Assembly: GCA_014360905.1 (NCBI GenBank)
Contig: JACIWW010000004.1
Span: 71,994 to 135,993 of the forward strand
Direction of reading: 5' to 3'
Source: Chloroflexota bacterium
Lineage (GTDB): Bacteria > Chloroflexota > Anaerolineae > UBA2200
Length of the DNA stretch: 64,000 nt
The position numbers and the translations under genes were made by a program. Each line of letters opens with the position of its first letter. The first letter of the stretch is position 1. Under the pieces are notes generated by a model. The model was not told the origin of the DNA and did not search any database. It saw nothing but the letters and a program-made list of their open reading frames with translations. Shown in pieces: positions 33,903 to 64,000 of the stretch.

Positions 33903-33991
33903 TCAGCAATCTCCCTCTTCTGTTAGCATAGACCAAGCAATTCTGAATACTAGTTTTCGCTTATTACTCCTCACTCATTACTCGCTATCCG

Positions 33992-34759
33992 TCACTTGCC
34001 AATCGCAATGCCCGTTGGGTCTATCTCCCGCAGAATGCGACGTTCTTCGGCAGTAGGTGGTTCCGTCATCTCGACGTGCTCTGGAATCAGGATCTCAAAC
34101 TCACTATTCTCCTGAATTTGTTCTATGGTTACGCCAGGATGGGTTGCGAGGAGCATGAGCCTTTTGGTCGTCTCATCGAAGCCATAAAGGCCAAGCTGTG
34201 TAATGACTCGGTACGGCCCGGTGCCTGCAGGCAGACCAGCCTTCTCTCGTGCGCCAGGCCCTGTCAGATAGCCTGGTGTTGTGATGAAATCTACCTTCTT
34301 CAGAAAGCGTCGTTTTTCCTGACGCATCATGATAATAGTCCGCCAGGAGAAAGACCCCACATCATTCGCGCCACCACTGCCAGGTAGGCGGGCTGTAGGG
34401 TGATCATGCTCACCGATAACCGTGGTATTGATGTTGCCATACATATCAATCATCGCTGCGCCAAGGAAACCGTAGTCGATGTATCCCGACTGTGAGATAG
34501 ACATCACGTCGTGCATGCTAGAAGCAGCAACAGCCTGGTAGAAAGTCCGTGATTCACCAACCGAGATAGGCAAGACCGGTACTCGCGGCCCTATTCCGCC
34601 GGCTTCGAAGATGATCAGTAGGTTGGGAGCGTGTGTCCGTTGTGCCAGCATGCCTGCAATCATTGGTAATCCTGTCCCCACAAAGGCAGACTTTCCGTCT
34701 TCCAACAACCTGCTGGCTACCACGGCTAATAGTTCTGTGGGCGTATAGTCTGCTTGCAT
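33992..34759 (-). CDS. Family I CoA-transferase, subunit B (glutaconate or 3-oxoacid CoA-transferase beta-like).
   Basis: 255 aa. Conserved glutamate region EAGGIG...PISVGE typical of beta subunits. Confidence 0.7.
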   Translation of the reverse strand: MQADYTPTELLAVVASRLLEDGKSAFVGTGLPMIAGMLAQRTHAPNLLIIFEAGGIGPRVPVLPISVGESRTFYQAVAASSMHDVMSISQSGYIDYGFLGAAMIDMYGNINTTVIGEHDHPTARLPGSGGANDVGSFSWRTIIMMRQEKRRFLKKVDFITTPGYLTGPGAREKAGLPAGTGPYRVITQLGLYGFDETTKRLMLLATHPGVTIEQIQENSEFEILIPEHVEMTEPPTAEERRILREIDPTGIAIGK

Positions 34760-34762
34760 GAT

Positions 34763-35860
34763 TTACTCCTCCTTCTTCAGCCAGGGTGCCCTCATGGGTG
34801 CTCGCAGTTCCTCCACCTGCTTCAAATATTGCAGCTTGCGTAGCCCTCCTACGAGTTCTAGATACTCGTTAAAATCTTTGGTCCCGTGCACATATTTATC
34901 AAAATATTCTTTGGTGCCTTCTGGTGTTTTGGACAATTGTAGCCACTCACCAATATGCTCCTCATCAAAGAAATAGCGCAGGGGCATCTGGCATGGATGG
35001 GAACCATAGGGCACTTCCACCACTGCATCCACAAGGAAGAACGGGATGACAGTTCGCCACGGGGTCCTGCGGATCTCTGACTCGGGGATAATCTCCTCTG
35101 TAGTCAAAATCAAACGCCTTGCTGCCCGAGCGAGCTCGAAGTCTTCGATCAGTGTGCCGTCAATTTGGGCATTGCCGTATATATCGCAGCGCGGCACATG
35201 GATAAAAACCACATCAGGATAGCAAGCAGGCAAGAGACAGATCGGCTTGCCACTAAATGGATCTTTCACGACTTTGGCTGAACTGTGCTTAAGCGTGTCC
35301 GTGCCAAGCATGTTCCGTGTGGGAATAAAGGGCACGCCCATCATCCCGGCAAGAAAGCGCCATTGATAGGCAGCATTGCTCAGCTCTGCGATAACCCTGC
35401 ACTGCCCCGTCTCTACAGCTCGACGCGAAGCGGGTGATAAACCACGTAGTTCGTGGCCAAAAGCATAGGCCACTTCGATGCGATCCACACAGCCCGAACC
35501 AATCAAGATGTCCGCATCATGTACCGCCGTCTTGCCAGCCAGGATTAGGTTTTTCTTCCGCTGGCGGATGATCTCGTACACGGCAGCCATGGAAACGCGG
35601 ATGTGGCCAAATCCACCAAAGGCAATGTAAGCGCCATCGAAAACGTATTTCGCCACGGCTTCCGCTATGGTCGTGCGCTTGTCTTTCAGATTCCGCGATT
35701 TGTTTTCGCGGATCCAAGCACGATGCTCGTCTGGGTCATGCCAGCCCACTAACTCTCCGCAGCCTTCTGCTAGGATCTCCATACCCTCCTCCCTGTTACA
35801 GGATTCCGCAAGACCCCAAAAGGGTTGAGAAACGCCTCTTGGGGTCTCGTGATCGCTCAA
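34763..35860 (-). CDS. Family I CoA-transferase, subunit A.
   Basis: 365 aa. Pairs with the downstream B subunit across a 3-nt gap. GGFG motif. Confidence 0.7.
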   Translation of the reverse strand: MSDHETPRGVSQPFWGLAESCNREEGMEILAEGCGELVGWHDPDEHRAWIRENKSRNLKDKRTTIAEAVAKYVFDGAYIAFGGFGHIRVSMAAVYEIIRQRKKNLILAGKTAVHDADILIGSGCVDRIEVAYAFGHELRGLSPASRRAVETGQCRVIAELSNAAYQWRFLAGMMGVPFIPTRNMLGTDTLKHSSAKVVKDPFSGKPICLLPACYPDVVFIHVPRCDIYGNAQIDGTLIEDFELARAARRLILTTEEIIPESEIRRTPWRTVIPFFLVDAVVEVPYGSHPCQMPLRYFFDEEHIGEWLQLSKTPEGTKEYFDKYVHGTKDFNEYLELVGGLRKLQYLKQVEELRAPMRAPWLKKEE

Positions 35861-36351
35861 GCGTTAACTGGTACAAAGTGCACAATATCCAGAATGGATC
35901 CCTCGCGTTCACGCTTAGGTTTGAAAACGGCTTTGACTCTCATGCCAATAGTCAGTTCATCAAGGCCCACCTTGCCTAAACGATGGACCAACACGCTATC
36001 CGCACCATCCAACTGGATAAGAGCCAGGATTTCTGGTTCCTCAAGCGGAGAACCATCAGGAGCGATGAGCAAAACGGTGAAGCTCTGTACTGTCCCTTCA
36101 GGGCCTACCTCCACCCATTCATCCAGTTTCGAGAAACAGCGTTCGCAATAGATGGCGGGGGGCACGTACGTGTAATCGCATTCTGGACAGTGCGTGCCCA
36201 CGAAACGGGCATTGTCCATCATCTCGCGGAAGAATCTCTCGCCCGCCAGGCCGCAAGTGTAGCGTCCTTGGATGGGCATATCTCCGCGCCAAACTCTTGC
36301 TTGAATATTCTTGTCTACTTTCTCTAGCAAGGCCATGGGTTTCCTCCTCAC
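35857..36351 (-). CDS. DUF35 protein: rubredoxin-like Zn ribbon plus OB fold (thiolase scaffold subunit).
   Basis: 164 aa. CPEC...CERC ribbon followed by an OB-fold-like C-terminus. 4-nt overlaps with both neighbours. Confidence 0.7.
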   Translation of the reverse strand: MRRKPMALLEKVDKNIQARVWRGDMPIQGRYTCGLAGERFFREMMDNARFVGTHCPECDYTYVPPAIYCERCFSKLDEWVEVGPEGTVQSFTVLLIAPDGSPLEEPEILALIQLDGADSVLVHRLGKVGLDELTIGMRVKAVFKPKREREGSILDIVHFVPVNA

Positions 36352-36857
36352 TCAACAGGTTTGAAGTAGAGGATATCGGTGATGGCGCCGATGCGTTCCG
36401 CGGCAGGTTTCCATACCGCCTTGACTTTCATGCCAATTTTGACCTGTTTGGGGTCTACCTCGCCCAGCAGGTGCAAAATACCCATGCCTTTGGACGCCCC
36501 GGCGATCTCGATAACGGCTGGGATCAGCGGTTCTTCAAGACGTTCCATATCCCATCGCACATGGCAGATAGAGAAGGTGTTCACCACTCCGTGATCCTCC
36601 AGGTACACCCATTCGTCCATGGGTCGAAAGCACCACTCGCAAAAGATGCGCGGCGGCACCACGGTGCGCCGGCAGCGGTGACAGTGTACTCCAATAATAC
36701 GTCCTTCCTTTAGCTCTGCCAGATAGCGGCCAATGGCAATGCCTGCATCCCAGGCATATTGCGCATTTGGCTTCCATTCAGTGAAAAGTACCTTTCTCTC
36801 CGTAAAGTCGGACTCGCGTAGCCCTACACCAGGAAACTCTTTGATCTTGGCAGTCAT
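36348..36857 (-). CDS. DUF35 Zn-ribbon/OB-fold protein, paralog of the gene above.
   Basis: 169 aa. CHRC...CEWC ribbon. Same architecture. Confidence 0.7.
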   Translation of the reverse strand: MTAKIKEFPGVGLRESDFTERKVLFTEWKPNAQYAWDAGIAIGRYLAELKEGRIIGVHCHRCRRTVVPPRIFCEWCFRPMDEWVYLEDHGVVNTFSICHVRWDMERLEEPLIPAVIEIAGASKGMGILHLLGEVDPKQVKIGMKVKAVWKPAAERIGAITDILYFKPVE

Positions 36858-36866
36858 TTTCTCCTC

Positions 36867-38039
36867 CTATCCCCCAATCCCCAGGATGATCACGGTGCCT
36901 ACCTGCATCAGGTCACCCCAAGCCTGGGCCAGCCCAGTGATGGGTTTGCCGGGCACTTGTCGTTTGCCAGCCTCGCCCCTTAGTTGCCAGAAAATCTCAG
37001 CGACCTTCATCAAACCTGCAGCGGCGATGGGGTTGCCCACTCCCAACAGTCCACCCGAAGGGCAGACGGGCATGTTGCCAGTACGCGCGGTCACGCCTTC
37101 CGCGGTTAGGCGTGGGGCTTCACCCTTATCCGCCAGAAGCAATCCTTCCAAATGGTGCAGCTCCTTGTAGTCGAACGGATCGTAAGGCTCAACGACATGG
37201 ATCTCTTTGCGTGGTTCGCGAATGCCAGCCATCTCATAAGCCATGCGCGCGGCATACTCCACGTACTTGGGATAGTACAGGTCTCGGTTCGTCCAGTACG
37301 CAGTGTCCAATGACCATCCCACGCCTTTGATCCACACTGGTTTATCTGTGATACGCTTGGCTACGTTTTCTGCGGCAAGTACCACGGCCACAGCGCCATC
37401 CGTGACGGGGCTTACATCCAATCGTTGCACTGGCCAGGCCAACACCTCGGAGTTCAAAACATCCTCTACCGTGATATTCGGATCGCCCAGCAGCGCGCAA
37501 GGGTGATCAGCCGCATTGCGCTTGTTCTTCACCGACACCAGAGCGATATCTTTTTTCTGCAGGCCATATGTCTGCATGTAGCGGTTCATTTCCAAGGCAA
37601 AAATCCACAGCAAGTTAGGTCCCAGCGGACGCTCGGTGGTGTGGTCGAAGATGGTAAGAAACGCTCCCTGTGGATGAGGCTGGCAACTGGACATCTTTTC
37701 CTCGCAGACGACCAGGCAGACATCGAACAGGCCAGAGGCGACATGATACCAGCCCTGAATCGGAGCAAACACCCCAGTGCCACCCCCCACATACGAGCGC
37801 ATGAATGGCTTGCGCCAAGCTCCCGCTCCATCGCTCAGGTACTCGCCCTTCATGTGCACGGCGTCAAAAGCATCTGGAGCGGTGCCAAGCGCCACGGCAT
37901 CCACATCATCCAGGGTGAGCTCACAAGAATCCAGCGCCATTTTCGCAGCCTCGTAGGCTAATTCCCTGCCGGTTTCCTGGGCGCGTCGGACGAACTTGGT
38001 CATTCCTGCACCAACTACGGCTACCTTTCTCAGACCCAT
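36867..38039 (-). CDS. Thiolase-fold protein of the SCP-x / lipid-transfer-protein (archaeal-type thiolase) class.
   Basis: 390 aa. VAVVGAGMTKF N-terminus and overall thiolase fold. It lacks the canonical two-domain biosynthetic-thiolase motifs. Confidence 0.7.
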   Translation of the reverse strand: MGLRKVAVVGAGMTKFVRRAQETGRELAYEAAKMALDSCELTLDDVDAVALGTAPDAFDAVHMKGEYLSDGAGAWRKPFMRSYVGGGTGVFAPIQGWYHVASGLFDVCLVVCEEKMSSCQPHPQGAFLTIFDHTTERPLGPNLLWIFALEMNRYMQTYGLQKKDIALVSVKNKRNAADHPCALLGDPNITVEDVLNSEVLAWPVQRLDVSPVTDGAVAVVLAAENVAKRITDKPVWIKGVGWSLDTAYWTNRDLYYPKYVEYAARMAYEMAGIREPRKEIHVVEPYDPFDYKELHHLEGLLLADKGEAPRLTAEGVTARTGNMPVCPSGGLLGVGNPIAAAGLMKVAEIFWQLRGEAGKRQVPGKPITGLAQAWGDLMQVGTVIILGIGG

Positions 38040-38051
38040 TTTGACCTCCTC

Positions 38052-39203
38052 TCAATTGCACAGGATGACTGCGGCGCCGCTTGTTGTGGGCAAACCACGC
38101 CAAGCGAAAGCCAGGCCAGCCTCTACATCGGGCAGTTGATGCTGGCCCGCCTCGCCGCGCAGTTGCAGCACTACTTCTAGCAGCCGTGCCAATCCAGAAG
38201 CATCCAGCAAATGACCCATCCCCAAGCTGCCCCCAGAAGGATTCACCGGAAAATCGCCCCCAATCTCAGTAGCCCCATCCTCGGTCAGCATCCCGGCTTC
38301 CCCTGGACGACAGAGGCGTAACGCTTCCATATGCTGTAGTTCTTTGTAAGAGAATGTATCGTCAATCTCGGCAAAATCTAATTCCTGCCAAGGAGTTCGG
38401 ATGCCAGCCATCCGGTAGGCCGTCTCTCCCGCTTTTGCTGCATAGATAGCGTTCATCCAATCCCTGTTTTCCAGAGAGAACGAATCGTTGCACCACCCTA
38501 CACCTCGAATCCATATGGGTATATCGCTCAGTTCTTCCGCTCGTTCTCTTGCAGCCAGGACCATGACAATGGCTCCATCCGCACGGGGACTCATATCCAG
38601 TCGCGAAAGGGGATAGGAGACTATCTCAGATTGCAAGACATCCTCGATAGCAATGTTGGCTCCGTACGCAGCAAGGGGATTGTACAAGGCGTTGTGCTTG
38701 TTCTTCGCTACTACCAGCGCGCATTGTTCCCTGGTAGTGCCCGTCTCACACAGGTAACGGTTCATCTCCAAACCAGCAATGAAATGGGGATTGACCTGCA
38801 GGGGTCGGTTGTACACCGGGTCCATCGCAAAGGCCATGATTTCATCGGGAGTAAGGATGTTCGATGCCTTGCTATGAGCCTCCACTGCCACAATGTCCAT
38901 CGCCCCGGTGAGGATCTGTAGGTACGCGGCAATGAAACCATGCAAGCCTTCTCCGGAAATGGTATGGACTGGTTTCAGCACCGCCCCCAGTTGGTCGGGG
39001 ACATACTCATCGAAAATGCTCGTGCCTTCCGTGAAATCCTCCGCTACAGTCACAAAACTCTCGATATCGCGGCGCGGATCTACGCCAGCATCTTCATACG
39101 CTTTGACCGCTGCCTCGTACATCAGTTCCTTGTATGACACTTCTGGCGTCAAGGCACGGAAACCAGAATAGCCTACGCCAATAATAGCTACTTCTCTAGG
39201 CAT
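38052..39203 (-). CDS. Second SCP-x-type thiolase-fold protein, paralog of the gene above.
   Basis: 383 aa. VAIIGVGYSGF N-terminus. Same family. Confidence 0.7.
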   Translation of the reverse strand: MPREVAIIGVGYSGFRALTPEVSYKELMYEAAVKAYEDAGVDPRRDIESFVTVAEDFTEGTSIFDEYVPDQLGAVLKPVHTISGEGLHGFIAAYLQILTGAMDIVAVEAHSKASNILTPDEIMAFAMDPVYNRPLQVNPHFIAGLEMNRYLCETGTTREQCALVVAKNKHNALYNPLAAYGANIAIEDVLQSEIVSYPLSRLDMSPRADGAIVMVLAARERAEELSDIPIWIRGVGWCNDSFSLENRDWMNAIYAAKAGETAYRMAGIRTPWQELDFAEIDDTFSYKELQHMEALRLCRPGEAGMLTEDGATEIGGDFPVNPSGGSLGMGHLLDASGLARLLEVVLQLRGEAGQHQLPDVEAGLAFAWRGLPTTSGAAVILCN

Positions 39204-53827: not shown

Positions 53828-53857
53828 AAAGCCAGCACCCGCAAGTGCTGGCTTTTT
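53828..53857 (+). terminator. Intrinsic terminator: aaagccagcac, a ccgcaa loop, gtgctggcttt, then TTTTG. It may act bidirectionally (A-rich 5' flank) for the convergent rpe gene.
   Basis: Perfect 11-bp stem and a T-run, 18 nt after the rpmB stop. Confidence 0.6.
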
Positions 53858-53874: not shown

Positions 53875-54549
53875 TCAGACTTCGATGCTCCTCCGTATTC
53901 TGGAAATTGCCTCTGCCACAGGCTCTTTCGTACCAAATATAGCCTGTCCAGCTACAAGCACAGTGGCTCCTGCTGCTACAACTAACGGCGCAGTCTGAAA
54001 ATCAATCCCTCCATCTACCTGGATAGCCGCGAACGAGCGGCGTTCATCCAGCATGTGCTTTACTTGTCGAATCTTATTGAGCATGCTGGAAATAAACTTT
54101 TGTCCGCCGAAGCCGGGATTGACCGTCATCACCAGAACCGAATCCACATCTTCTAGAATCTCTTGCAAAGACATTGCTGGCGTGGCCGGGTTGAGCACCA
54201 CGCCGGCTTTTGCACCATAACTCTTGATCTGTTGGATCGTACGGTGCAGATGTGGACAGGCTTCCACGTGCACGAGGATCCAGTCTGCTCCTGCAGAGAT
54301 AAAATCAGCAATGTAACGCTCTGGCTCTACGATCATGAGATGGGTAGGCAACGGCAAAGAGGTGACGCGGCGCACAGCTTCAACAATTGCGGGGCCAAAT
54401 GTGATATTGGGCACAAAACGACCATCCATCACATCAATGTGAATGTAATCAGCCCCTCCTGTCTCAGCCTCTTTCACCTGTTCCCCAAGGCGTGTGAGGT
54501 CTGCGGACAGAATGGATGCAGCTATTTTGACTGGTGGTCCACCCTTCAT
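53875..54549 (-). CDS. rpe: Ribulose-phosphate 3-epimerase.
   Basis: Start taken at MKGGPPVKIAASILSAD. HIDVMDG, VNPGFGGQ and DGG motifs co-linear with E. coli Rpe. Confidence 0.85.
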   Translation of the reverse strand: MKGGPPVKIAASILSADLTRLGEQVKEAETGGADYIHIDVMDGRFVPNITFGPAIVEAVRRVTSLPLPTHLMIVEPERYIADFISAGADWILVHVEACPHLHRTIQQIKSYGAKAGVVLNPATPAMSLQEILEDVDSVLVMTVNPGFGGQKFISSMLNKIRQVKHMLDERRSFAAIQVDGGIDFQTAPLVVAAGATVLVAGQAIFGTKEPVAEAISRIRRSIEV

Positions 54550-54587
54550 AAGGCCATAATACTCCGTTTTTGCCAAAAAAGCAAGAA

Positions 54588-55637
54588 CTAATCCGTTTTT
54601 CGCTGACGCGATCGCAGTTGGCCACATCCCGCCTGTATATCAATACCACGCCCCAATCGCACGGTGTTCGCGATCCCCATGCGATTCAGCTCGCGTCGGA
54701 AGGCAAAGATTCGCTGTCGTGTGGAGGGCTGATAATCGCATTCTCCAGTAGGATTAAGCGGGATGAGATTCACATGGCAGAGCAAGCCGCGCAGCAGTTG
54801 GCCCAGTTCCCTCGCTTGCTTTGGGTCGTCGTTAACGCCCTGAATCAGTGCATACTCAAAACTTACCCGCCGTCCGGTTCGCTGCACGTATTCTTGACAG
54901 GCTGCGAGCAACTCTGCTAACGGATAACGTTTGTTGATAGGCACCAGATGGTCTCGCAGCTTGTCGTTAGCTGCATGTAGCGAGATCGCTAGCCCCACAG
55001 AAAGCTCTTCCTGAGCCAAGCGACGAATGCCTGGCACCAACCCAACTGTGGAGATAGTAAATCGCCGTGCTCCCAGGTTGAAGCCTCGATGGTCATTCAA
55101 AACCCTTATAGCATGCAAGGTCGCTTCGTAGTTGGCCAGAGGCTCGCCCATGCCCATGAACACTACATTGGTAACGGTGGCTCCCCGCTCTCGCAGTTGC
55201 TGAGCAAAATAGAGCACCTGTCCCACGATTTCGCCGCTGCTCAGGTTGCGCTTGAATCCGCTTTGGCCCGTGGCACAAAACGGGCACCCCAATGCACAAC
55301 CCACTTGGGTTGAAAGGCACACCGTATGACGCCCCTCATAATGCATGAGCACGCTCTCTATCGTCTCACCGTCCTGCAACTGCAACAATACTTTTGTCGT
55401 CAGACCATCAGCAGAGGTTAGGGTTTCTAGAGGCAGCAGTGGCTGGATGATAGCCAGGTCATTCCACTTGTGACGTAGAGGCAACGGCAGATTGGTCATG
55501 GCGGTAAAATCGAACACCAACTCACGGTAGATCCATGCGAAAAGCTGCTGAGCGCGGAACGAAGGCTCACCCTGTTCGGTGACCCAGGACGCTAGTTGTT
55601 CATAAGACCAATCAGTGAGCAAAATGCTCGCTGTCAT
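54588..55637 (-). CDS. rlmN: 23S rRNA/tRNA m2A methyltransferase RlmN (radical SAM).
   Basis: CLSTQVGCALGCPFCATG radical-SAM cluster motif. PSFRAQQLFAWIY N-terminal region. The start is uncertain (alternative at 55685). Confidence 0.8.
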   Translation of the reverse strand: MTASILLTDWSYEQLASWVTEQGEPSFRAQQLFAWIYRELVFDFTAMTNLPLPLRHKWNDLAIIQPLLPLETLTSADGLTTKVLLQLQDGETIESVLMHYEGRHTVCLSTQVGCALGCPFCATGQSGFKRNLSSGEIVGQVLYFAQQLRERGATVTNVVFMGMGEPLANYEATLHAIRVLNDHRGFNLGARRFTISTVGLVPGIRRLAQEELSVGLAISLHAANDKLRDHLVPINKRYPLAELLAACQEYVQRTGRRVSFEYALIQGVNDDPKQARELGQLLRGLLCHVNLIPLNPTGECDYQPSTRQRIFAFRRELNRMGIANTVRLGRGIDIQAGCGQLRSRQRKTD

Positions 55638-56442
55638 CCCGCAATCCTTCACGCCAGGCTCGATGCAGTGCAGCAACGTCTTCATAGACTAGATCGGGCA
55701 TAAGCGATGAATGAGCCAACTGCTGACGGTCCGTCACCCCGCTCAGTACGAGGATAGTGACTAGTCCCATTCGCCGCCCGCCCAGAATATCTGTATCGAG
55801 ACGATCGCCAAGCATAGCCGTTGTCTTCGGTTCAGCCTGTAGTTTCTGAAAGGCGATCTCAAAGATGATTGGCTGTGGTTTGCCGATAATCAGTGGGGCA
55901 GTGTCCGTAGCGGTTTCAATCGCCGCCAATAGTGCTCCCGCACCTGGAGTCAACTCGCCTTCAGAAGGGAAAGTCTTGTCCGGATTGGTACCAATGAACA
56001 GAGCACCTGCTCGGATGGCGCGAGCCGCAGTTGTCATCTTCTCATAATTGAAATGGTAATCGAGCCCCACCACCACATACGCGACGTCGCTATCTTTGCT
56101 GAGCACAAATCCCTTCTTCTTTAATTCGGCTCGCACACCATGCTCACCAATGAGATAGACCTTGGTGCCAGGTGGAGCGACTCTGGCCAAATACATGGCA
56201 GTGGCCTCACCTGAAGTCAAAATTTCTTCCTCCACTGTTTGTATGCCCATGCGCGCTAATTTGGCAACGTATTGCGACGCTGTGAGTGTCGAATTGTTTG
56301 TGAGCAGGAGGCAATGCACGCCTATCTGACGCAGAAAATGGAGAAATTCGCCTGCCCCTTGGATAGGCGCATTCCCGCGGTAAAGAACTCCATCCATATC
56401 AATGATCAAACTGCGCAGTTGGGTCAACTTGGGAATAGTCAT
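55612..56442 (-). CDS. HAD-superfamily hydrolase, subfamily IIA (NagD-like sugar-phosphatase).
   Basis: 276 aa. IIDMDGVLYRG motif I. LTNNS. C-terminal GD..DTD.LGG. Confidence 0.75.
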   Translation of the reverse strand: MTIPKLTQLRSLIIDMDGVLYRGNAPIQGAGEFLHFLRQIGVHCLLLTNNSTLTASQYVAKLARMGIQTVEEEILTSGEATAMYLARVAPPGTKVYLIGEHGVRAELKKKGFVLSKDSDVAYVVVGLDYHFNYEKMTTAARAIRAGALFIGTNPDKTFPSEGELTPGAGALLAAIETATDTAPLIIGKPQPIIFEIAFQKLQAEPKTTAMLGDRLDTDILGGRRMGLVTILVLSGVTDRQQLAHSSLMPDLVYEDVAALHRAWREGLRDDSEHFAH

Positions 56443-57818
56443 CTTGCTTTGTTCATCCCTTCAGAGGCTTGTTGTTCTGCTTGTATTCGCTCCAAGAGCC
56501 TTCGATAATCGGCATCTGTGTCAATGTCGCAGCAAATTTCCGGAGACTCCACTTCGACAGGCACCACCTTATCTTCAAAGCGTGCGATTACCTGCCGCCC
56601 GCCTATGTCCCCATGTAGAGCTTTCAGCTCGGGAAAAAGGCAGCGGTCGAACAGAGCAGGCGGGCTGCGCCGACCCTCACAGGAGGAGGCGACGATTGGC
56701 TTAGTCGTGCGATAGTACGCTAGTAAGATGCGCTCAAGTGCTGAACTTGTCACTAGTGGCTGGTCAGCCAGGACAAACAGGGCAGCTTCTGATCGGCGAT
56801 CAATCGCCTCAAGTCCGGCACATATAGAGGAACTCATACCTGCTTCCCACTTCTCATTCCACACTGTGCGGCAAGCCGATGGAATGCACGGCGTGATTTG
56901 CTCTGCGGAGCATCCAAGGACGACTATGACCTCGTCTACGCTGGTAGCCATCACCGCATCCAGCACATGCTCAATCATGGTTTTTCCCGCAATGGGCAAA
57001 AGTTGCTTGGGCATTCCGAAGCGTTTTGAAGCTCCAGCCGCCAGGACGACAGCCGAGACCCGACGCCAGCATTCCATGACGGGGTTATCAGTTGCCGCTG
57101 CACCGATAAGCACCCTATCCAGGGGGGAAGCAGCCTTAATCTGGCGCGCTATTTGGCGGGCAATAGCAAGTGCCCTATCATCCTGCACCTTATTGATGAA
57201 AGGCATCACACGAGCATGAGCAGGAGCCCCTTTGAGTGCCCCCTGTTCATGGACAAGGAGTTTTGCCAGAACCGAAGCGTTGATCACTTCCCCAGGTGTC
57301 AAGCCAGTCAGCTCGGCAACCAGTTGAGGACGGTGAACCGCTTCTTCGCCAAGTGTACTGCCAACCACATCTACCCCCACGACGGGCACGAACAGAGTGG
57401 TCTCGATGGGCACTACTGGCTCATAGGCTGCGGGAGCTTTGAGCGACCGCCCCTTGGCTCCGTCAGCCTCAATGATGATTGCATCTGCTAGATTTATCAG
57501 AGTCTCAACTAAACCTAGATCAATGCCCTTCAGTTTGTTCTCTGTCTCAAGACGCTGGGCAGCCAATGTGATCAGGCTGTTATGGTGTAGAGACTCCTTG
57601 ACTAGACACAAAGCTTCTGCTGGGTCGCTAGATACAACCAAATCTTCCATTGGTCCAAGGGATGGTGGGCGTATCATGGTCGTGGTGGTCACGATCACGT
57701 GCCAGCCAAGGCTGACCAACTCACGGCCTAAGCGGCACATGGCCGTGGTCTTCCCTCCTGCTCCCACGAAGGAGATCACGTCGCCCTTGTGAACTTGCAA
57801 TGCTTCCCAGAGTTGCAT
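56439..57818 (-). CDS. Fusion protein. The N-terminal half is YqeC-like (selenium-dependent molybdenum-hydroxylase accessory family). The C-terminal half is MocA/MobA-like (molybdenum cofactor cytidylyltransferase).
   Basis: 459 aa. N-terminal FVGAGGKTTAM motif as recalled for the YqeC family. C-terminal LAAGASKRFGMPKQLL nucleotidyltransferase motif of MobA/MocA. Stop is 2 nt from the ygfK-like start. Confidence 0.5.
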   Translation of the reverse strand: MQLWEALQVHKGDVISFVGAGGKTTAMCRLGRELVSLGWHVIVTTTTMIRPPSLGPMEDLVVSSDPAEALCLVKESLHHNSLITLAAQRLETENKLKGIDLGLVETLINLADAIIIEADGAKGRSLKAPAAYEPVVPIETTLFVPVVGVDVVGSTLGEEAVHRPQLVAELTGLTPGEVINASVLAKLLVHEQGALKGAPAHARVMPFINKVQDDRALAIARQIARQIKAASPLDRVLIGAAATDNPVMECWRRVSAVVLAAGASKRFGMPKQLLPIAGKTMIEHVLDAVMATSVDEVIVVLGCSAEQITPCIPSACRTVWNEKWEAGMSSSICAGLEAIDRRSEAALFVLADQPLVTSSALERILLAYYRTTKPIVASSCEGRRSPPALFDRCLFPELKALHGDIGGRQVIARFEDKVVPVEVESPEICCDIDTDADYRRLLERIQAEQQASEGMNKAR

Positions 57819-57820
57819 CT

Positions 57821-60800
57821 CTATCCATGAGGAAAAGGTAAGAAGGGCAGAGAGGTAGTAACGCCATGAAGAATCACATACATTTCTGCCGCTTCAATCG
57901 GAGAGAAAGCCCCTTGAAATTCTTGTTTCAATGCCATTGTCTTGAGTCGGAAGTCAGAAGACGAAAAAGTCATTTTCAACCGATCATTCTCAAAAGCCAC
58001 CTCATTTGCTCCGTCAGTTGTAAAGAGATGTGCTTCCTTCCCATTTTCTCGCCTTCTGATAACCCACCCCTTGTGCATTCTCTCGATGTAGAAAGCATTA
58101 TCCTTCTCCAACGCGAAATCACCTGCATTGAAGAACAGCCTTGGCTTTTCGCGATAGGGTTTTCCTTGGTGCACACAGAAGGTAGCGCAGTTACCGCACT
58201 CATTGCAAAAATCGTCCACATGAATAATCTGCCGAACTTGCTCGAGTTGAAACAGGCGCTCCCCTGATACAACCAGCTTGCCATTGTGGCAGGAGAGTAC
58301 AGGCATTGCTGCCTTCATCGGCGAGATGATGAAGTAGGTGTAATTGGCACGGTTGGGGCAGACCTCTACACATTTGTCACAAAGGGTGGAGCATTGCAGG
58401 CAACGAGCGGCTTCGTTACGCGCCGCATCCTCGCTCAGCGTTTGCTCAACTAATTCAAAATCATTACAGCGGGCAACGTAGGGTGCCTCAGGTCTATGCG
58501 GCATTGCTTTTCTGGCACGAGCGCGTTTGATCTGCACAATCTCTGTCTCCGAGAGCTCCGCCACTCTGATCGGCAACCACTCAAAGTGGATGCCCAGCTC
58601 GGTGCAAATGGCTTCGGCAGCACGCTGCCCGTCGGCGCACGCCTCTATAACCGTAGCCGGCCCTCGCACGGCATCACCGCCGGCATATACACAGCCCGCC
58701 TGTGTCTGTCCTGTCTGGGGATCAACTGCAATAGCTCCATCTGGACGCAGAGAAACCGCGCTGCCATCGAGGAAAGCAATGTCCGGTCTTTGGCCAATGG
58801 CCACAATGATGGCATCGGTTTCGATCTCGAACTCGCTCCCTGCGATTGGGATTGGCTTCCTCCGTCCATCTGCCTCGGGATCGCCTAATCTGTTGCGCAC
58901 ACACTCTAATCCAGCCACTCGTCCGTTCTTCACGATGACCCTGGTGGGGGAGGCAAGTTCTATCAATGTGTTGCCCTCGGCAAAAAACGCTTCTTTTTCT
59001 TCCTCGGTAGCCGGCATCTCGCGTTCTGTTCGCCGATAGACCACTGTTACCGGTTTGCCTGTAATCCTTCGCGCAGTCCGAGCAGCATCCATCGCGGTGT
59101 TTCCACCACCGATGATGAGCACTTTAGAGCCCAGGTTCGGCTTCTCCCCCCACGCTACTCGTTCCAACAAATCGAGGGCAGCAAAGATGCCGGTAGCCTC
59201 TATTCCTTCGATTGTTAATGGGACATCCTTTTGGAAGCCACAGGCGATGTATACAGCATCAAAACCCTGCTTGAGCAGCTCTTCCGGCGGCGAGGTGATG
59301 GGGTGAGAAAGCTCGATGTTGACTCCCATCCGGGTGATGCGCTCGATGTCCTTCTGCACAATAGATGGGGGCAGTCGGAAAGAAGGGGCGATCGTCAGCA
59401 TGCCCCCGGGTCTATCTTTGGCTTCATAGATGGTTACCTGGACGCCGTTCAAAGCTAGGAAATACGCTGCAGCCAGCCCAGAAGGGCCACTGCCAATAAT
59501 TGCAACCCTTCGGCTACGAGTAGAACTAGCCTTATGCTCATTTTGTTCCTTCACTAGCATCGCAGCATTGCCTCTCTCAGCGGCAACTCGCTTGAGCGCC
59601 CGAATTGCCACAGGCTGTTCGTAATTGTTGCGGGTACAGCGGATTTGGCACAGGTGCGTGCAGATATACCCAGTTACGCCTGGCAGTGGATTGCGTTTGA
59701 GCACAACCTCAAGCGCACGATCGTACTCTCCCTGGGCAATCCACCAGATGTACTCCGGCACATCCTGATGCACTGCGCATTGCTCCTTACAAGGTGCTGC
59801 AATACAGTCAAACAACCCCAAGCCCGACTCAACCTTCGGCAGCCCGTACGGGTGATAACTCTTTTTATAGCGGAGATCCTGCAATGCATCGTTGGCTGCT
59901 TTCTCCAGGTTGGCCAGTTTGTCTCGGGCGAGTTCCTCCAAGCTGGCGACGCCTTGGTCATGCATCGCCTGTTCCAGATTCTCAAGAGACTGGAGAAGTC
60001 GAGAATAGCCGCCCGGTTTGAGCAGGTCAGTAACGGTCGTGACCGGATAAGCACCAGCTGCCAGGATCGTGACCACGTTAAATGCATCTGCCCCTGCCGA
60101 ATATGAGACGCGCAAGTCGCCTTTGAATTCTTGCGCTAATTTGTGGAATAGGTTCATAGTGATGGGGTAGAGGGCCCGTCCTGACATGTACATCTCGTCT
60201 CCAGGGAGAAGCCCCTTGTGGTTAGCCATCGCCAGTGTATTGCTCAACTTGACCCCAAAGGTCAGACTATGCTCAGCCGCCACTTGTTGTAGCGTCCGAA
60301 TCAATTCCACGGCGCGCTCGTATTGCAGATCATGTTCGAACACAGCATCTGGAATTTGAATCTCACGGAAACCAAGATGTTCATGGAGGATCTGCATCAC
60401 CATGTCTTTGCCCAGCAAGGTGGGGTTTAATTTCACTGTAGTGTGCAGTCCTCTTTCCTCCAGCAGATAGCGTACAATCCGTTCGATTTCATCTGGTGGG
60501 CAACCATGCATCGTGGAAAGAGTGACATTGTTAGTCAATTGAGTTGGGATCTCAATGTCGGCAAACTGGGGGAAATGTGTGCACAGGATATTCTGGATCT
60601 CCGCAATCTCCTCGGAAGCATCCACCATCCGCTCCATAAAGCGCGTCATGGGTGAGCTTTGTATTCCGTTCAAGTTATAGCCAACGCTCATGTTGAAGAT
60701 GGTTCCAAGGGGGACCTTGCCCTCAAAACCAAGCAGTCGGTGCAGGATATGAATTAGCACCCATGCCTTGATGTATTCCCGTGCGGACTGATCCAGTTTG

Positions 60801-61147
60801 AGTTCCTGCGACCACTCGACGTTATAGCCCTCATCCTCCATGTCAATGCATGGGCGAGGAATCTCGAGCTCATCCATAATCTGCACAGTCTTGAGTTCGA
60901 TAAATCGTCCGCCCGAAAGCCAAGCACAGACAATGTTCTGTGCCAACTGCGTGTGTGGTCCTGCCGCTGGGCCGATTGGAGTAGCCAGGTAATGCCCAAA
61001 CATATCCTTTACCGCATACAGGCTATCCTTTTTGGGTATGTAGAACAGAGAGCGGTGAATGCCAAAGATGGATTGGTTTCCCTCGAATTCTTTGAGTATC
61101 CAACGAAGTAAAACATCGAAAGGTTGGACACGCATTTTGTCAGACAT
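57821..61147 (-). CDS. ygfK: YgfK-like large Fe-S flavoprotein (annotated in E. coli as putative selenate reductase subunit YgfK). N-terminal DPD/DHOD-like domain, then a GltD-like FAD/NAD(P) domain, then 4Fe-4S ferredoxin.
   Basis: 1108 aa. PIGPAAGPHTQLAQN. Two dinucleotide-binding motifs (VAIIGSGPSGLAAA and a second GGGNTAMD). Several CxxCxxC clusters. Length and order match YgfK. Confidence 0.6.
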   Translation of the reverse strand: MSDKMRVQPFDVLLRWILKEFEGNQSIFGIHRSLFYIPKKDSLYAVKDMFGHYLATPIGPAAGPHTQLAQNIVCAWLSGGRFIELKTVQIMDELEIPRPCIDMEDEGYNVEWSQELKLDQSAREYIKAWVLIHILHRLLGFEGKVPLGTIFNMSVGYNLNGIQSSPMTRFMERMVDASEEIAEIQNILCTHFPQFADIEIPTQLTNNVTLSTMHGCPPDEIERIVRYLLEERGLHTTVKLNPTLLGKDMVMQILHEHLGFREIQIPDAVFEHDLQYERAVELIRTLQQVAAEHSLTFGVKLSNTLAMANHKGLLPGDEMYMSGRALYPITMNLFHKLAQEFKGDLRVSYSAGADAFNVVTILAAGAYPVTTVTDLLKPGGYSRLLQSLENLEQAMHDQGVASLEELARDKLANLEKAANDALQDLRYKKSYHPYGLPKVESGLGLFDCIAAPCKEQCAVHQDVPEYIWWIAQGEYDRALEVVLKRNPLPGVTGYICTHLCQIRCTRNNYEQPVAIRALKRVAAERGNAAMLVKEQNEHKASSTRSRRVAIIGSGPSGLAAAYFLALNGVQVTIYEAKDRPGGMLTIAPSFRLPPSIVQKDIERITRMGVNIELSHPITSPPEELLKQGFDAVYIACGFQKDVPLTIEGIEATGIFAALDLLERVAWGEKPNLGSKVLIIGGGNTAMDAARTARRITGKPVTVVYRRTEREMPATEEEKEAFFAEGNTLIELASPTRVIVKNGRVAGLECVRNRLGDPEADGRRKPIPIAGSEFEIETDAIIVAIGQRPDIAFLDGSAVSLRPDGAIAVDPQTGQTQAGCVYAGGDAVRGPATVIEACADGQRAAEAICTELGIHFEWLPIRVAELSETEIVQIKRARARKAMPHRPEAPYVARCNDFELVEQTLSEDAARNEAARCLQCSTLCDKCVEVCPNRANYTYFIISPMKAAMPVLSCHNGKLVVSGERLFQLEQVRQIIHVDDFCNECGNCATFCVHQGKPYREKPRLFFNAGDFALEKDNAFYIERMHKGWVIRRRENGKEAHLFTTDGANEVAFENDRLKMTFSSSDFRLKTMALKQEFQGAFSPIEAAEMYVILHGVTTSLPFLPFPHG

Positions 61148-61226
61148 GCCCCCTCCTATAGGCTGGCGATCTGAAATGCATATTATGGCTTGATACTCGA
61201 TACGGCAATTAGAGTCTTTGTCCTTA

Positions 61227-61466
61227 TTAGCCTTTCCTCAATGCTACGTCCTCTTCAACTTGCACAACGGCTGTGGCAATGGCCCAACTGACCAGTCCCC
61301 AAGTTCCTCCGCAGAGCACAATCGCCAGCAAAATATTTGGTAGAGATAAATTGTTTGCCCGCCATAGACCCACAAGGGTCAAAACAATTGCCAAGATGGC
61401 GAAAAAGAGCCCTACCTTAATGGGGCCGCTTAGCCGGCCTTTTCGTCCTTTCGTTCGCTGTGCCAT
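61227..61466 (-). CDS. Small two-TM membrane protein, hypothetical.
   Basis: 79-aa ORF with two hydrophobic helices, lying between the ssnA-like and ygfK-like genes on the same strand. Confidence 0.35.
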   Translation of the reverse strand: MAQRTKGRKGRLSGPIKVGLFFAILAIVLTLVGLWRANNLSLPNILLAIVLCGGTWGLVSWAIATAVVQVEEDVALRKG

Positions 61467-61496
61467 AAGTTTATTTCCTCCTAGCGCTCCGCGCTT

Positions 61497-62828
61497 CTAC
61501 AGCCGCTGCCAGAGCTTGGCTGCCAGCTCACGAGCCTTCGCCCCGATCTCCTCTTCATCCAACGTCTTCAACTCGCGTTTGTGCATGAGTACTTTGCCCG
61601 CGACGATCGTCGTGCTCACGTGAGCTCCATCCACACCGAAAATGATGTGCCAAGGCAAATTCCCCTCCGTCAGCGGTGTGGGGGGAACATAGTCCAGGAA
61701 CACGATGTCAGCATAAGCACCCGGTGTGAGCTCTCCCAGTGGTTTAGAGTAGAAAAGCCCGGCCGTCTGCGCATTGTGCTGCACAGCCATTGTCAAAACC
61801 TTATCCGCACCAAGTACCCGAGGGTCCTCGCTAGCCAGCTTGTGCAATAGATAGGCTGTTTTCATTTCGCTGAACATATTGTTCGAGAAGCCATCGTTGC
61901 CCAGACCAACCTCGATACCATTCTCCAACATCTTGGGCACATTGGCCACCCCGACGGCGTTGTTCATGTTGGAGCGCGGATTGTGCACTACCCGCGTGCC
62001 TGTTTCTCGCAGGATGCCCATCTCGTGGTCGTCTACATGAACGCAGTGCGCAGCGATGGTTTTGGGTCCCAAGATACCGCGTTGGGCTAGGCGTTCCACT
62101 ACACGCTGGCCATACTTTTTCAGAGAATCGTGCACGTCCGCAATACCTTCTGCGACATGAATGTGGAATCCAGCATTGAGCCCCCTCGCCATCTCGACCG
62201 CACGAGCCAACGTCTCGTCTGATAAAGTGAGGGAGGCATGCAATCCAAAGGTAGCGGCGAGCAATCCTTCTTTGCCTTTCACGCGTTGAATGAAGCGAGC
62301 ATTCTCATCCAAGCCTTCCTGCATCGCCTCTGGCCCATCTCGATCCGAGACCTCGTAGCACAGACAACACCGTAACCCCGCTTGAGTCACTGCCTCCGCG
62401 ATGGCATCCAGCGAGTAGGTGATAGCGTGTGGGGAGGCGTGGTGGTCAAGGAGCGTGGTCGTGCCATTGCGCATGGCATCAATCAGACACACGAGAGCGC
62501 TATAGCGGATGTCTTCGATGGTGAGTGCCTTGTCCAAACGCCACCAAAGGCGTTCCAGGATTTGCGGAAAATCGGCTGGCGGCTCTCCTCGCAGGCTCAT
62601 GCCCCGCACAAACAGGCCATAGAAATGGGTGTGGGCGCAGATCAAGCCGGGCATCACAAGCTGCCCCTGTGCATCAAGTGTATCCTCCTCAGGATACCGA
62701 GCTCTCAAGTCTGGGGTAGTTGAGACGTCTGTAATTGTGTCGCCTTCGATCCGTAATGCACCATCGGGTATGATACGCGGGTTTGCTCCAAATGTCACCA
62801 AAATCCCATTAAGGATTAGCATTTTCAC
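61497..62828 (-). CDS. ssnA: SsnA-like amidohydrolase (chlorohydrolase/aminohydrolase family).
   Basis: 443 aa. MLILNG..., VMPGLICAHTHFYGL metal-binding HxH, and a downstream HVAE motif. Length and N-terminus resemble E. coli SsnA. Confidence 0.65.
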   Translation of the reverse strand: MKMLILNGILVTFGANPRIIPDGALRIEGDTITDVSTTPDLRARYPEEDTLDAQGQLVMPGLICAHTHFYGLFVRGMSLRGEPPADFPQILERLWWRLDKALTIEDIRYSALVCLIDAMRNGTTTLLDHHASPHAITYSLDAIAEAVTQAGLRCCLCYEVSDRDGPEAMQEGLDENARFIQRVKGKEGLLAATFGLHASLTLSDETLARAVEMARGLNAGFHIHVAEGIADVHDSLKKYGQRVVERLAQRGILGPKTIAAHCVHVDDHEMGILRETGTRVVHNPRSNMNNAVGVANVPKMLENGIEVGLGNDGFSNNMFSEMKTAYLLHKLASEDPRVLGADKVLTMAVQHNAQTAGLFYSKPLGELTPGAYADIVFLDYVPPTPLTEGNLPWHIIFGVDGAHVSTTIVAGKVLMHKRELKTLDEEEIGAKARELAAKLWQRL

Positions 62829-63727
62829 TCCTTTCTACAAGTACACCAAAGCAAACGATTGTCTGTGATCTGATACGTTATCTGGCCACTGTTGCTCAGA
62901 TGGCTCAAATAAGCGTGGAGCGTTGGCAATAAAAGATAGTATTCCCGGATATTGCGGATCTTGATCCCATAGTGCTGACAGGCAGCTCTCAAAAGACTAC
63001 TGACTTCAGCGGGTGCTTGAGCGAGGTAGTTCTCGATAAAATTCAGAACATCCATTATTTGTGCGATATTGCGCTTGATAAGGCCGGCAATATCGCGTTC
63101 GAGTTGACCATGCCCCAATACGTAATACGCACAGGAATAATGGCGCAGTTTTTCCAGGCTTTCCAGGCGCTTGGTAACGCTATAGGCGTACGAAATAGCC
63201 GTGTTCGCTAATTCCGCTTCTCCAGCCAGAATATCCCCCGTGAAAAAGACATCGTTCACAATATAGCCGGTATGACTGCCCGTGTGACCTGGTAGGGGTA
63301 CAACCTGCACTGTTATCCCAGCAATCTGGATTTCACCTTCGGTCACTACCACATCTGTAACACAAGGTTGAGGGGCAAAGCGAGGCGTACCTAACTCGAC
63401 AATGGGTTCAGCCCCACCAAATACACACATAGCACCCCATACAGGACGCTGTAATACAATCGAATCATACACAGGAGCATAGACTTTAGCACCGGTATGC
63501 TCGACTAGATAAGCATTGCCTCCCACGTGGTCACCATGACCATGGGTGTTGAGAATGGCCACCAAATTGAGGCCTTGTTCTTCCAGAATCTGCAACAACA
63601 ATCGTCCAGAACGCTGCCCAACTCCTGTATCAATCAGGAGAGCTTGCTGTTCCTCGCCTATAATGAGGCCAATGTTGCTTGCACCAGGTAGGTAATAGAC
63701 GTTATTAAGGATATGTTGTAGTGGCAA
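62825..63727 (-). CDS. Metallo-beta-lactamase-fold hydrolase.
   Basis: 300 aa. LNTHGHGDHVGGN HxHxDH motif. 4-nt overlap with the ssnA-like start. Confidence 0.75.
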   Translation of the reverse strand: MPLQHILNNVYYLPGASNIGLIIGEEQQALLIDTGVGQRSGRLLLQILEEQGLNLVAILNTHGHGDHVGGNAYLVEHTGAKVYAPVYDSIVLQRPVWGAMCVFGGAEPIVELGTPRFAPQPCVTDVVVTEGEIQIAGITVQVVPLPGHTGSHTGYIVNDVFFTGDILAGEAELANTAISYAYSVTKRLESLEKLRHYSCAYYVLGHGQLERDIAGLIKRNIAQIMDVLNFIENYLAQAPAEVSSLLRAACQHYGIKIRNIREYYLLLPTLHAYLSHLSNSGQITYQITDNRLLWCTCRKE

Positions 63728-63984
63728 AGCTTCGTCCTCTGCGCTGAGTGTTCACTCTACTGAAATTATACAGGACGCCAAAGCAAAAAGCAAGATGGAT
63801 ACCTTTCGGGCGGTGCACTTTAAAGCTGATGTCCTGCTAAGCCGGTGGCTTTCTTATCACGCTGCTCTATCCCCGCATCCCGATATTTACCCAAGCTTGC
63901 AGTAGGACCTATTCCAATCATTTGGAAATGCGGGGTTTTTAGGTTATAATTATTCAACTTTTGAAGATGAAAGGAGAAAGAAAA

Positions 63985-64000
63985 TGAGAAGAGTTCTTGG
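63985..64000 (+). CDS. Start of an ORF (MRRVL...) running off the 3' edge of the window. Unknown product.
   Basis: ATG preceded by aaaggagaaag, an RBS-like sequence. Only 5 codons are visible. Confidence 0.2.

Follow-up and report, generated by a model that had tools for sequence, protein, structure and literature searches.

An Anaerolineae gene string carries a probable YgfK/SsnA front end of the reductive 2,8-dioxopurine pathway in a lineage-specific arrangement

A string of genes in an Anaerolineae genome carries what is probably the known front end of the reductive 2,8-dioxopurine pathway in a lineage-specific arrangement, and is not a new system. It lies within a 64,000-nt stretch of DNA from Chloroflexota bacterium (Anaerolineae; UBA2200; JACIWW010000004.1, positions 71,994-135,993), the whole of which we call the window. 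On the minus strand, between 53.9 and 63.7 kb, eight tightly packed genes encode, in order, a metallo-β-lactamase (MBL) fold hydrolase, the amidohydrolase SsnA, a 79-aa protein with two predicted transmembrane (TM) helices, the flavoprotein YgfK, a YqeC::MocA fusion, a HAD-IIA phosphatase, RlmN and Rpe. The pathway itself became known as recently as 2025, from work on Proteobacteria and Firmicutes of the gut. Its molybdenum hydroxylase (XdhD or DOPDH, selenium-dependent in Clostridium) dehydroxylates urate; XdhD-YgfM makes 2,8-dioxopurine from urate, which YgfK and SsnA convert with NAD(P)H to ureidomethyl-hydantoin (10.1101/2025.05.19.654654). Among the dioxopurine isomers, YgfK accepts the 2,8 form specifically (10.1101/2025.04.24.650524); activity of this kind has been described for the E. 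coli enzyme alone. After SsnA, HyuA, YgeW or UacY, YgeY and YgeX complete the conversion to pyruvate. The link to purine and urate catabolism drawn in the first-pass annotation of the window has now been demonstrated by experiment with the orthologues of E. coli and Clostridium (10.1101/2025.05.19.654654; 10.1101/2025.04.24.650524). For the organism studied here we lean, with modest confidence, towards a pathway that is present but dispersed, with the downstream enzymes and a presumed distal hydroxylase encoded elsewhere in the genome.

Protein identities were judged by NCBIfam profiles with curated cut-offs, together with Pfam. SsnA (61497-62822, minus strand) scored 569.9 bits with NF005540 (cut-off 444) and 561.8 bits with TIGR03314 (cut-off 455.5), while the next-best amidohydrolase model gave 290 bits against a cut-off of 609. 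Aligned end to end with E. coli SsnA, it shows 35% identity. In a nine-sequence alignment including the E. coli protein, H64, H66, H220, H222, H259, H280 and D310 are invariant, and the metal-ligand pattern (HxH, His, His, Asp) is intact, as in E. coli SsnA. YgfK (DOPOR; 57821-61147, minus strand), an Fe-S flavoprotein of 1108 aa encoded 350 nt downstream of SsnA, scored 1039.1 bits with TIGR03315 over model positions 1-993 of 1012 (equivalog cut-off 835.3). Pfam places Fer4_20 at residues 447-525, Pyr_redox_2 at 547-840 and Fer4_10 at 975-998. Across an alignment of 1068 columns the protein has 39.7% identity to E. coli YgfK, with which it shares 17 cysteines, including the cluster motifs and C981/984/987/991 (CxxCxxCxxxC). 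The cofactor and metal motifs of both enzymes are thus intact, and by orthology YgfK would be an NAD(P)H:2,8-dioxopurine reductase; SsnA, to judge from its characterised E. coli and Clostridium orthologues, would open the reduced 2,8-dioxopurine ring. The SsnA, YgfK and YqeC assignments of the first-pass annotation are all borne out by scores above the curated cut-offs, and the competing assignments failed. With the 1108-aa protein, models for glutamate synthase and dihydropyrimidine dehydrogenase (PreA) were far under their cut-offs whereas the YgfK model passes; generic amidohydrolase models (chlorohydrolase, guanine deaminase) fared likewise with SsnA (443 aa in its longer form), for which the SsnA models pass.

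The locus resembles the E. coli cluster mocA-ygfK-ssnA-ygfM-xdhD with its divergent yqeB/yqeC (Li et al. 2025, Liu et al. 2025): orthologous YgfK, SsnA, YqeC and MocA-like proteins are encoded adjacently in both, and the reductase and the amidohydrolase are paired. Unlike that cluster, however, the window has YqeC and MocA in one polypeptide and ssnA before ygfK; it adds the MBL, two-TM and HAD-IIA genes; it lies in a housekeeping block rather than a purine island; and it lacks xdhD/ygfM, yqeB, hyuA, ygeW/X/Y, yqeA and transporters within 74 kb. Compared with the YqeB/YqeC/YgfJ set of selenium-dependent molybdenum hydroxylase (SDMH) loci (Haft & Self 2008), the locus likewise has YqeC and YgfJ (MocA) side by side, an arrangement also known from E. 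coli, C. difficile and Haloarcula, but YqeB and SelD, which with YqeC define the selenium-cofactor trait (see also Peng et al. 2016), are not in the neighbourhood and HAD-IIA takes the adjacent position. In C. difficile, UacX, a PydA-like FMN/Fe-S reductase, replaces YgfK (Li et al. 2025); this is mirrored by distant relatives of our locus that have a UacX-like protein, whereas the window has YgfK. The same authors, using a sequence similarity network with a 15-gene window, found Chloroflexota SsnA neighbourhoods with no Xdh, no YgfK or UacX and a luciferase-like F420 reductase. Our locus comes from the same phylum and likewise has no Xdh nearby, but in its clade a YgfK or UacX-like gene adjoins SsnA (9/9 SsnA-bearing relatives in the locus comparison), and the published generalisation therefore fails for this clade.

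The 459-aa protein (56439-57818, minus strand) had been read as a fusion of YqeC and MocA, and both halves hold up, the second narrowly under its cut-off. Residues 14-228 (~57135-57779) are YqeC: TIGR03172 matches at 188.4 bits (cut-off 73.05), PF19842 also matches, and identity to E. coli YqeC is 37%. Residues 255-441 (~56496-57056) match TIGR03310 over model positions 1-188 of 188 (174.2 bits, E=3e-51), by a wide margin the best NTP-transferase model for this domain, and PF12804 as well. As the score lies 12 bits below the equivalog cut-off of 186.45, we call the domain MocA-like rather than a proven equivalog; the homologous domain of a longer fusion in locus L015 passes at 186.7. The Walker A motif VGAGGKT and the motif LAAGxSxRxG are invariant in the fusion alignment, and AAG rather than AGG in the latter would mark CTP specificity. 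An AlphaFold model of the whole protein had a pLDDT of 92.9 and a pTM of 0.90, and Foldseek gave MobA and the MobA-fold protein Rv0371c as the closest solved folds for the C-domain (target TM-score 0.76-0.92). A sequence search of the YqeC domain against the PDB returned nothing significant. Modelled alone (pLDDT 92.4), it adopts a predicted SIMIBI/G3E-type P-loop NTPase fold whose top matches were the IcmF G-domain, MeaB, HypB, UreG, FtsY and MipZ, at modest TM-scores of 0.40-0.45 and 14-17% identity. By analogy only, such a fold would suit an NTPase that acts as a chaperone in cofactor handling. In IcmF, likewise, a SIMIBI/G3E-like NTPase (a G-protein chaperone of the MeaB type) is covalently joined to a cofactor-handling enzyme, its B12 mutase, and in the MobA/MobB pair an NTPase is partnered with a cofactor enzyme; both parallels are functional analogies only, and no MobB homology was detected for YqeC. 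In C. difficile, deletion of yqeC was without phenotype while yqeB was required (PMC11448449).

The next gene (55612-56442, minus strand) encodes a HAD-IIA phosphatase (TIGR01460, 164.6 bits, cut-off 100.15; PF13344 and PF13242 also match). Among solved structures, PH1952, NagD and p-nitrophenyl phosphatases come closest to it. A HAD gene adjoins the fusion in 14/14 HAD-linked loci, and in many relatives HAD and MocA, with or without YqeC, are encoded by a single gene. Triple YqeC::MocA::HAD-IIA fusions occur as one open reading frame (ORF) in L015:2661-4934 and L051:1638-3824 (757 and 728 aa, DMDG motif intact) and in L093:10001-12253. A database search with the L015 protein yielded ~21 triple-fusion protein clusters of 695-829 aa (P0121-P0133, P0172, P0173, P0203, P0205, P0206, P0210, P0214, P0226) and ~35 clusters of MocA::HAD-IIA proteins without YqeC, of 444-513 aa (most of P0135-P0171, plus P0178, P0180, P0181, P0192). 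At L092:10001-11446 a MocA::HAD gene is overlapped at its 5' end by a separate YqeC gene within the same housekeeping backbone. These covalent links to MocA, with or without YqeC, place HAD-IIA in the YqeC-MocA unit of this clade and outside the housekeeping genes. In the literature searched we found no mention of the triple-fusion architecture. The JGI name for the MocA::HAD-IIA proteins is '4-nitrophenyl phosphatase'. A 274-aa ORF after the fusion of L030 was considered as a HAD gene and rejected.

The recurrent phosphatase fusion, the sub-threshold MocA score and the constant absence of YqeB from the loci of the window's clade could also be read differently: YqeC-MocA-HAD might be a diverged nucleotidyltransferase-phosphatase pair of the KdsC/KdsB type, acting on some other phosphorylated metabolite connected to SsnA and having nothing to do with the molybdenum cofactor. 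We regard this as highly improbable, given that TIGR03310 is matched end to end and passed by the L015 triple fusion, that the closest solved folds are MobA and Rv0371c, and that the sister group of the clade consists of fusions from genuine Xdh/YqeB loci (below). A more adventurous proposal, towards which we are doubtful, keeps the molybdenum cofactor and makes YqeC, MocA and HAD-IIA one physical machine replacing YqeB-YqeC-MocA. YqeC would then be a G3E-like chaperone acting at the synthesis or insertion of molybdopterin cytosine dinucleotide (MCD) rather than in selenium delivery, and the HAD protein a third component that, for example, removes a phosphorylated by-product.

When one genome was scanned for each GTDB species, 577 relatives of the fusion emerged; we examined 86 loci, namely the best 80 of these 577 and six fetched earlier, with flanks of ~10 kb. 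The fusion had been described as an unusual form, a view that does not survive this comparison: both domains lie in one ORF in 77 of the 86 loci (81 allowing for alignment overhang), and the best 120 protein clusters are all two-domain YqeC::MocA proteins of ~380-510 aa. Fusion loci come mostly from Anaerolineae, so that the suggested check for recurrence in related taxa has a positive answer; others are from Neomoorella stamsii and from metagenome-assembled genomes (MAGs) labelled Acidobacteriota and delta-proteobacterium. The YqeC::MocA fusion is thus the standard Anaerolineae architecture. In L033 (Syntrophobacteraceae), L036 (Acidobacteriota) and L056 (a Caulobacteraceae MAG) an in-frame stop, at ~1.1 kb in L033 and ~10.6-10.8 kb in L036/L056, separates YqeC and MocA into adjacent genes.

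These loci fall into two contexts. YqeB (TIGR03309, 335 bits) is encoded immediately upstream of the fusion in 52/86 loci, and an Xdh-family molybdenum subunit lies within 10 kb in 36/86, in some cases XdhD-like with a YgfM-like partner; such YqeB/Xdh-flanked fusions represent the classical SDMH context. A neighbour-joining tree places the window in a separate clade, sister to the fusions in this canonical context. Within the window's clade the fusion is followed by a HAD-IIA gene, and YqeB or Xdh is nearby in 0/14 loci against 52/72 of the rest (Fisher's test, 3e-7, uncorrected for phylogeny and descriptive only). Several Anaerolineae loci of the canonical context (L022, L043, L045, L050, L075) carry hydroxylase and YqeB genes, at ~0.5-10 kb of each locus, in a particular form: a fused FAD+[2Fe-2S] subunit of ~480 aa, a molybdenum subunit of ~745 aa, and YqeB split into genes for an N-half (XdhC-like) and a C-half (TIGR03309). 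L045 additionally encodes an XdhD-like 1012-aa protein with a YgfM-like partner, and no SsnA or YgfK within 10 kb.

Gene order in the window's closest relatives is conserved. The window's fusion protein has an identical nr entry, assigned to a 'Chloroflexota bacterium' MAG. In the nearest GTDB species (L011, JACIWX01) the fusion is 77% identical to the window's, and among relatives at 60-78% fusion identity the entire block of MBL, SsnA, small protein, YgfK, fusion, HAD, RlmN and Rpe is retained, and it continues into (L28), Asp23, FakA, DegV and RecG. Relatives whose fusions are 45-50% identical instead show RecJ, NUDIX, SsnA, small protein, a 363-aa reductase, fusion, (His_Phos_1) and HAD. 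In L009, L010, L012-L014, L097 and L117 this 363-aa protein, with a DHO_dh domain and 2x[4Fe-4S], holds the position of YgfK; our label UacX-like for the Chloroflexota proteins rests on domain content (PF01180 + Fer4) and not on comparison with C. difficile UacX. The reductase is therefore interchangeable, and the core is retained across the swap. In L006 (GCA_964478075.1) an 87-aa ORF (L006:6042-6305) lies between the small protein and YgfK, and its residues 1-37 share 62% identity with the N-terminal part of L009's UacX-like protein. This UacX-like relic beside YgfK indicates that the reductase was displaced in place.

Linkage of SsnA and a reductase to MocA and YqeC also recurs in independent gene orders and at both ends of the clade: L128 has the order YgfK, SsnA, YqeC, MocA::HAD, and in L093 (GCA_014874485.1) SsnA (537 bits) directly precedes the triple fusion. 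This bears on whether ssnA and ygfK were simply inserted by chance beside a conserved yqeC::mocA-HAD-rlmN block, their adjacency being without functional meaning. Such an origin would suit L018, L016 and L092, which keep the fusion-HAD backbone (with rlmN next where visible, in L018 and L092) and have neither SsnA nor a reductase, and it would suit L094, in which an SsnA/YgfK pair stands with no fusion within the fetched flanks. We nevertheless find chance insertion improbable, because the genes are joined at translational-coupling distances (2 nt and a 4-nt overlap), because the linkage appears at both clade ends in differing orders, and because the E. coli linkage arose independently.

The first-pass annotation had reported no molybdenum hydroxylase in the 64 kb, and tblastn and Pfam confirm this and extend it to ~74 kb. 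The extension was provided by Logan contig L001, which is identical to the window and runs 10 kb past position 64000, on the upstream side of the operon. With queries taken from the annotated E. coli K-12 region, XdhA/B/C/D, YgfM, YqeB, YgeW/X/Y, HyuA, YqeA and the purine transporters gave no tblastn match at E<1e-3 in the window or L001. Pfam analysis of the other window ORFs of >=90 aa (all but one ORF of 91-92 aa) returned housekeeping families only and no hydroxylase; these ORFs include genes for fatty-acid synthesis, thiolases, CoA-transferases, RecG, CoaD, NusB, TatC, MreB, EPSP synthase and others. A cryptic hydroxylase among the large ORFs was rejected, as Pfam assigns them to RecG, ABC transporters, FakA, GH5 and similar families, and one just past the end of the window was rejected as well, since the 10 kb of L001 hold AF_1845-like, PIG-L, spermine-synthase, Lit, HD, S1 and DksA genes. 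The window's single PALP enzyme (11267-12364) is not YgeX-like by tblastn. No SelD was seen in the gene content of the window and L001 or in the flanks of the clade relatives, the dedicated SelD test having covered the relatives' loci only.

Loci centred on SsnA give a wider view of how the pathway genes are distributed. We fetched 80 metagenome loci around SsnA orthologues 55-69% identical to the window's. Molybdenum-hydroxylase genes lie within ~10 kb of SsnA in 15/80 of them, and YgeW, YqeA, YgeX, YgeY or HyuA is encoded beside SsnA in 5-8 of the 80. Many of the orthologues stand isolated among unrelated genes, from which it follows that scattering is normal for the group. Orphan SsnA genes in L099, L103, L127, L132 and L156 (55-65% identical, at ~10.0-11.3 kb) have RecJ, NACHT/HEAT, FHA or PP2C genes as neighbours, and in L158 the gene next to SsnA carries an F420_oxidored domain. 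At the other extreme, near-complete clusters or subsets of them surround SsnA proteins 55-59% identical to the window's in L165, L136, L167, L168 and L124: L165 and L136 have a molybdenum hydroxylase, YgeX, SsnA, YgeY, YqeA and YgeW, L165 also has HyuA, and the other three have subsets. No YgfK or UacX match was found in these five loci, and their reductase is therefore of another type.

Several of these results weigh against a dispersed pathway with a distal hydroxylase. Within 74 kb there is no hydroxylase, YqeB, molybdenum-cofactor biosynthesis or downstream pathway gene; neither YqeB nor Xdh lies within the fetched flanks of any of the 19 window-clade loci, additional ones included; YqeB is found in 0/80 of the SsnA-anchored loci; and the MocA domain misses its equivalog cut-off, as described above. 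Moreover, only YqeB and YqeC jointly mark the selenium-cofactor trait (PMC5029168), so nothing here supports the view that the presumed hydroxylase depends on selenium. One could accordingly suppose that YgfK and SsnA work independently of any hydroxylase, on 2,8-dioxopurine or a related oxidised purine or pterin from an external or non-molybdenum source, and that YqeC-MocA-HAD serves unrelated molybdenum enzymes. Besides the lack of hydroxylase and YqeB near 19/19 clade loci, this would fit the position of the module within a conserved housekeeping block (rlmN, rpe and the genes from L28 to RecG) rather than a catabolic island, the NUDIX, His_Phos_1 and HAD genes that flank it in relatives and hint at nucleotide-level substrates, and the Chloroflexota SsnA neighbourhoods without Xdh noted by Li et al. 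Yet the linkage of SsnA/reductase to MocA/YqeC regardless of gene order (E. coli, the clade, L128, L093) is hard to explain without an MCD enzyme, and SsnA of similar identity does occur beside molybdenum hydroxylases in the 15 metagenome loci. We therefore think a hydroxylase-independent role rather unlikely. The only known client class of a YqeC/MocA-type maturation unit is that of MCD-type hydroxylases. As between the two options raised in the first-pass annotation, a hydroxylase encoded elsewhere or YgfK and SsnA acting independently of it, the comparative evidence leans towards the former.

If the pathway is indeed present but dispersed, it may operate as follows. The ssnA and ygfK genes would be transcribed from a promoter 5' of the MBL gene along with the YqeC::MocA and HAD-IIA cofactor unit. 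In that unit MocA would act as a Mo-molybdopterin cytidylyltransferase and YqeC as a SIMIBI/G3E-like P-loop NTPase, and together with HAD they may mature an MCD-type hydroxylase of the XdhD/DOPDH kind, which would produce 2,8-dioxopurine from urate. YgfK would then reduce, and so dearomatise, 2,8-dioxopurine with NAD(P)H, and hydrolytic ring opening by SsnA would pull the reduction forward. The hydroxylase, HyuA, YgeW or UacY, YgeY and YgeX would be encoded elsewhere, in keeping with pathway genes that appear to be scattered in Chloroflexota.

Signals and junctions in the string suggest a transcription unit that probably spans the MBL gene to rlmN. Some 40 nt 5' of the MBL start codon lies a candidate promoter read by eye, TTGCTT-17 nt-TATAAT (63765-63793, minus strand), which was not listed by the consensus scan, its -35 fitting 3/6 positions. 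The MBL stop codon is followed after 2 nt by the SsnA ATG at 62822, which gives a 441-aa protein; the alternative GTG at 62828 would give 443 aa and overlap the MBL gene by 4 nt. Another 2 nt separate the YgfK stop from the fusion ATG, and the fusion stop and HAD start overlap as ATGA (4 nt). The 3' end of the HAD gene in turn overlaps rlmN (54588-55637, minus strand; 349 aa, gene call from the identical contig L001; TIGR00048, 409 bits, cut-off 290), an rRNA/tRNA methyltransferase gene whose synteny is kept in relatives and which is probably co-transcribed with it. Next comes rpe (53875-54549, minus strand), for ribulose-phosphate 3-epimerase (TIGR01163, 290 bits, cut-off 212.6). It is preceded by its own promoter-like TTGCTT-17 nt-TATTAT (by eye; window 54550-54590, minus strand), so the unit is taken to end at rlmN and co-transcription beyond it is doubtful. 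The module had been described as joined transcriptionally to the housekeeping genes HAD, rlmN and rpe; of this, the tight spacing and the 4-nt overlap stand, while HAD is part of the unit itself and rpe has a promoter-like sequence of its own. On the 3' side of rpe there is a GC-rich hairpin (53831-53852, by eye) followed by TTT, and the scan gave no canonical terminator. For internal promoters and terminators the consensus scan was at chance level (8 vs 9.1 expected; 6 vs 9.8 expected). A riboswitch (Moco, purine or xanthine) over the operon was also considered and rejected, as searches of the window, L008, L009 and L093 gave no Rfam match at or above the gathering score. The promoter-like sequences of rpe and MBL have the same -35-like hexamer and spacing, which may reflect a local promoter consensus of the organism.

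Two further proteins of the string, the leading MBL hydrolase and the small protein between SsnA and YgfK, are present as first described. The MBL protein (62825-63727, minus strand; 300 aa) matches PF00753 at 92.9 bits and carries an HGHGDH motif. No NCBIfam model reached its cut-off with it, and its best solved relatives, glyoxalase II and B3 lactamases, match at an E of about 1e-8 only. Orthologues 71-81% identical head the string in L005, L006, L008 and L011 only, and this MBL is confined to the YgfK sub-clade. The 79-aa protein (61227-61466, minus strand) has an AGGAGG Shine-Dalgarno sequence 8 nt upstream, a basic N-terminus and two hydrophobic spans predicted to be TM helices; it has no Pfam or NCBIfam match. 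It carries the motif G(T/V)WG(L/V)(V/I)SWAIA and is conserved in 10 related loci. In nine loci a homologue stands between SsnA and the reductase, whichever its type, and in L018 one immediately precedes the fusion gene. The latter locus (L018:9048-11356) encodes RecJ, an MBL protein of 213 aa, the two-TM protein, YqeC::MocA and HAD, with no SsnA or reductase; because the two-TM protein is kept there without SsnA, its occurrence follows that of the fusion no less closely than that of SsnA. The 213-aa MBL of L018, which stands at the equivalent position, was rejected as an orthologue of the window's, the two having no tblastn similarity at E<1e-3.

Elsewhere in the analysed DNA, a 346-aa gene (L001:8704-9744) lies just past position 64000, divergent from the MBL gene. 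It is recorded as PF27226 (AF_1845), had no Pfam match in this analysis, and occurs in the window's strain only (L001, L002), being absent from that position in L005 and L006. A minus-strand set at 32754-39203, unrelated to the SsnA/YgfK locus, comprises an acyl-CoA dehydrogenase, two CoA-transferase subunits, two DUF35/ChsH2-type OB-fold proteins and two SCP-x-type thiolases, and resembles side-chain or ketone degradation modules.

Altogether, the basic picture of the 2,8-dioxopurine pathway is unchanged, but genuine YgfK/SsnA pairs do exist in environmental Chloroflexota, against what the published survey of SsnA neighbourhoods reported. Because the pathway genes are unlinked from the hydroxylase, surveys based on gene clusters would count too few of this phylum's urate and purine degraders. 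The by-product of most use is the collection of natural YqeC/MocA/HAD fusions, which as 'Rosetta-stone' evidence tie YqeC to the cytidylyltransferase step in molybdenum-cofactor maturation, make its function experimentally approachable, and nominate the HAD-IIA phosphatase and the conserved two-TM protein as new candidate partners. If YqeC, MocA and HAD-IIA do form one machine, the fusions would be the first direct handle on YqeC function and would point to a YqeB-independent route to a mature hydroxylase feeding YgfK and SsnA.

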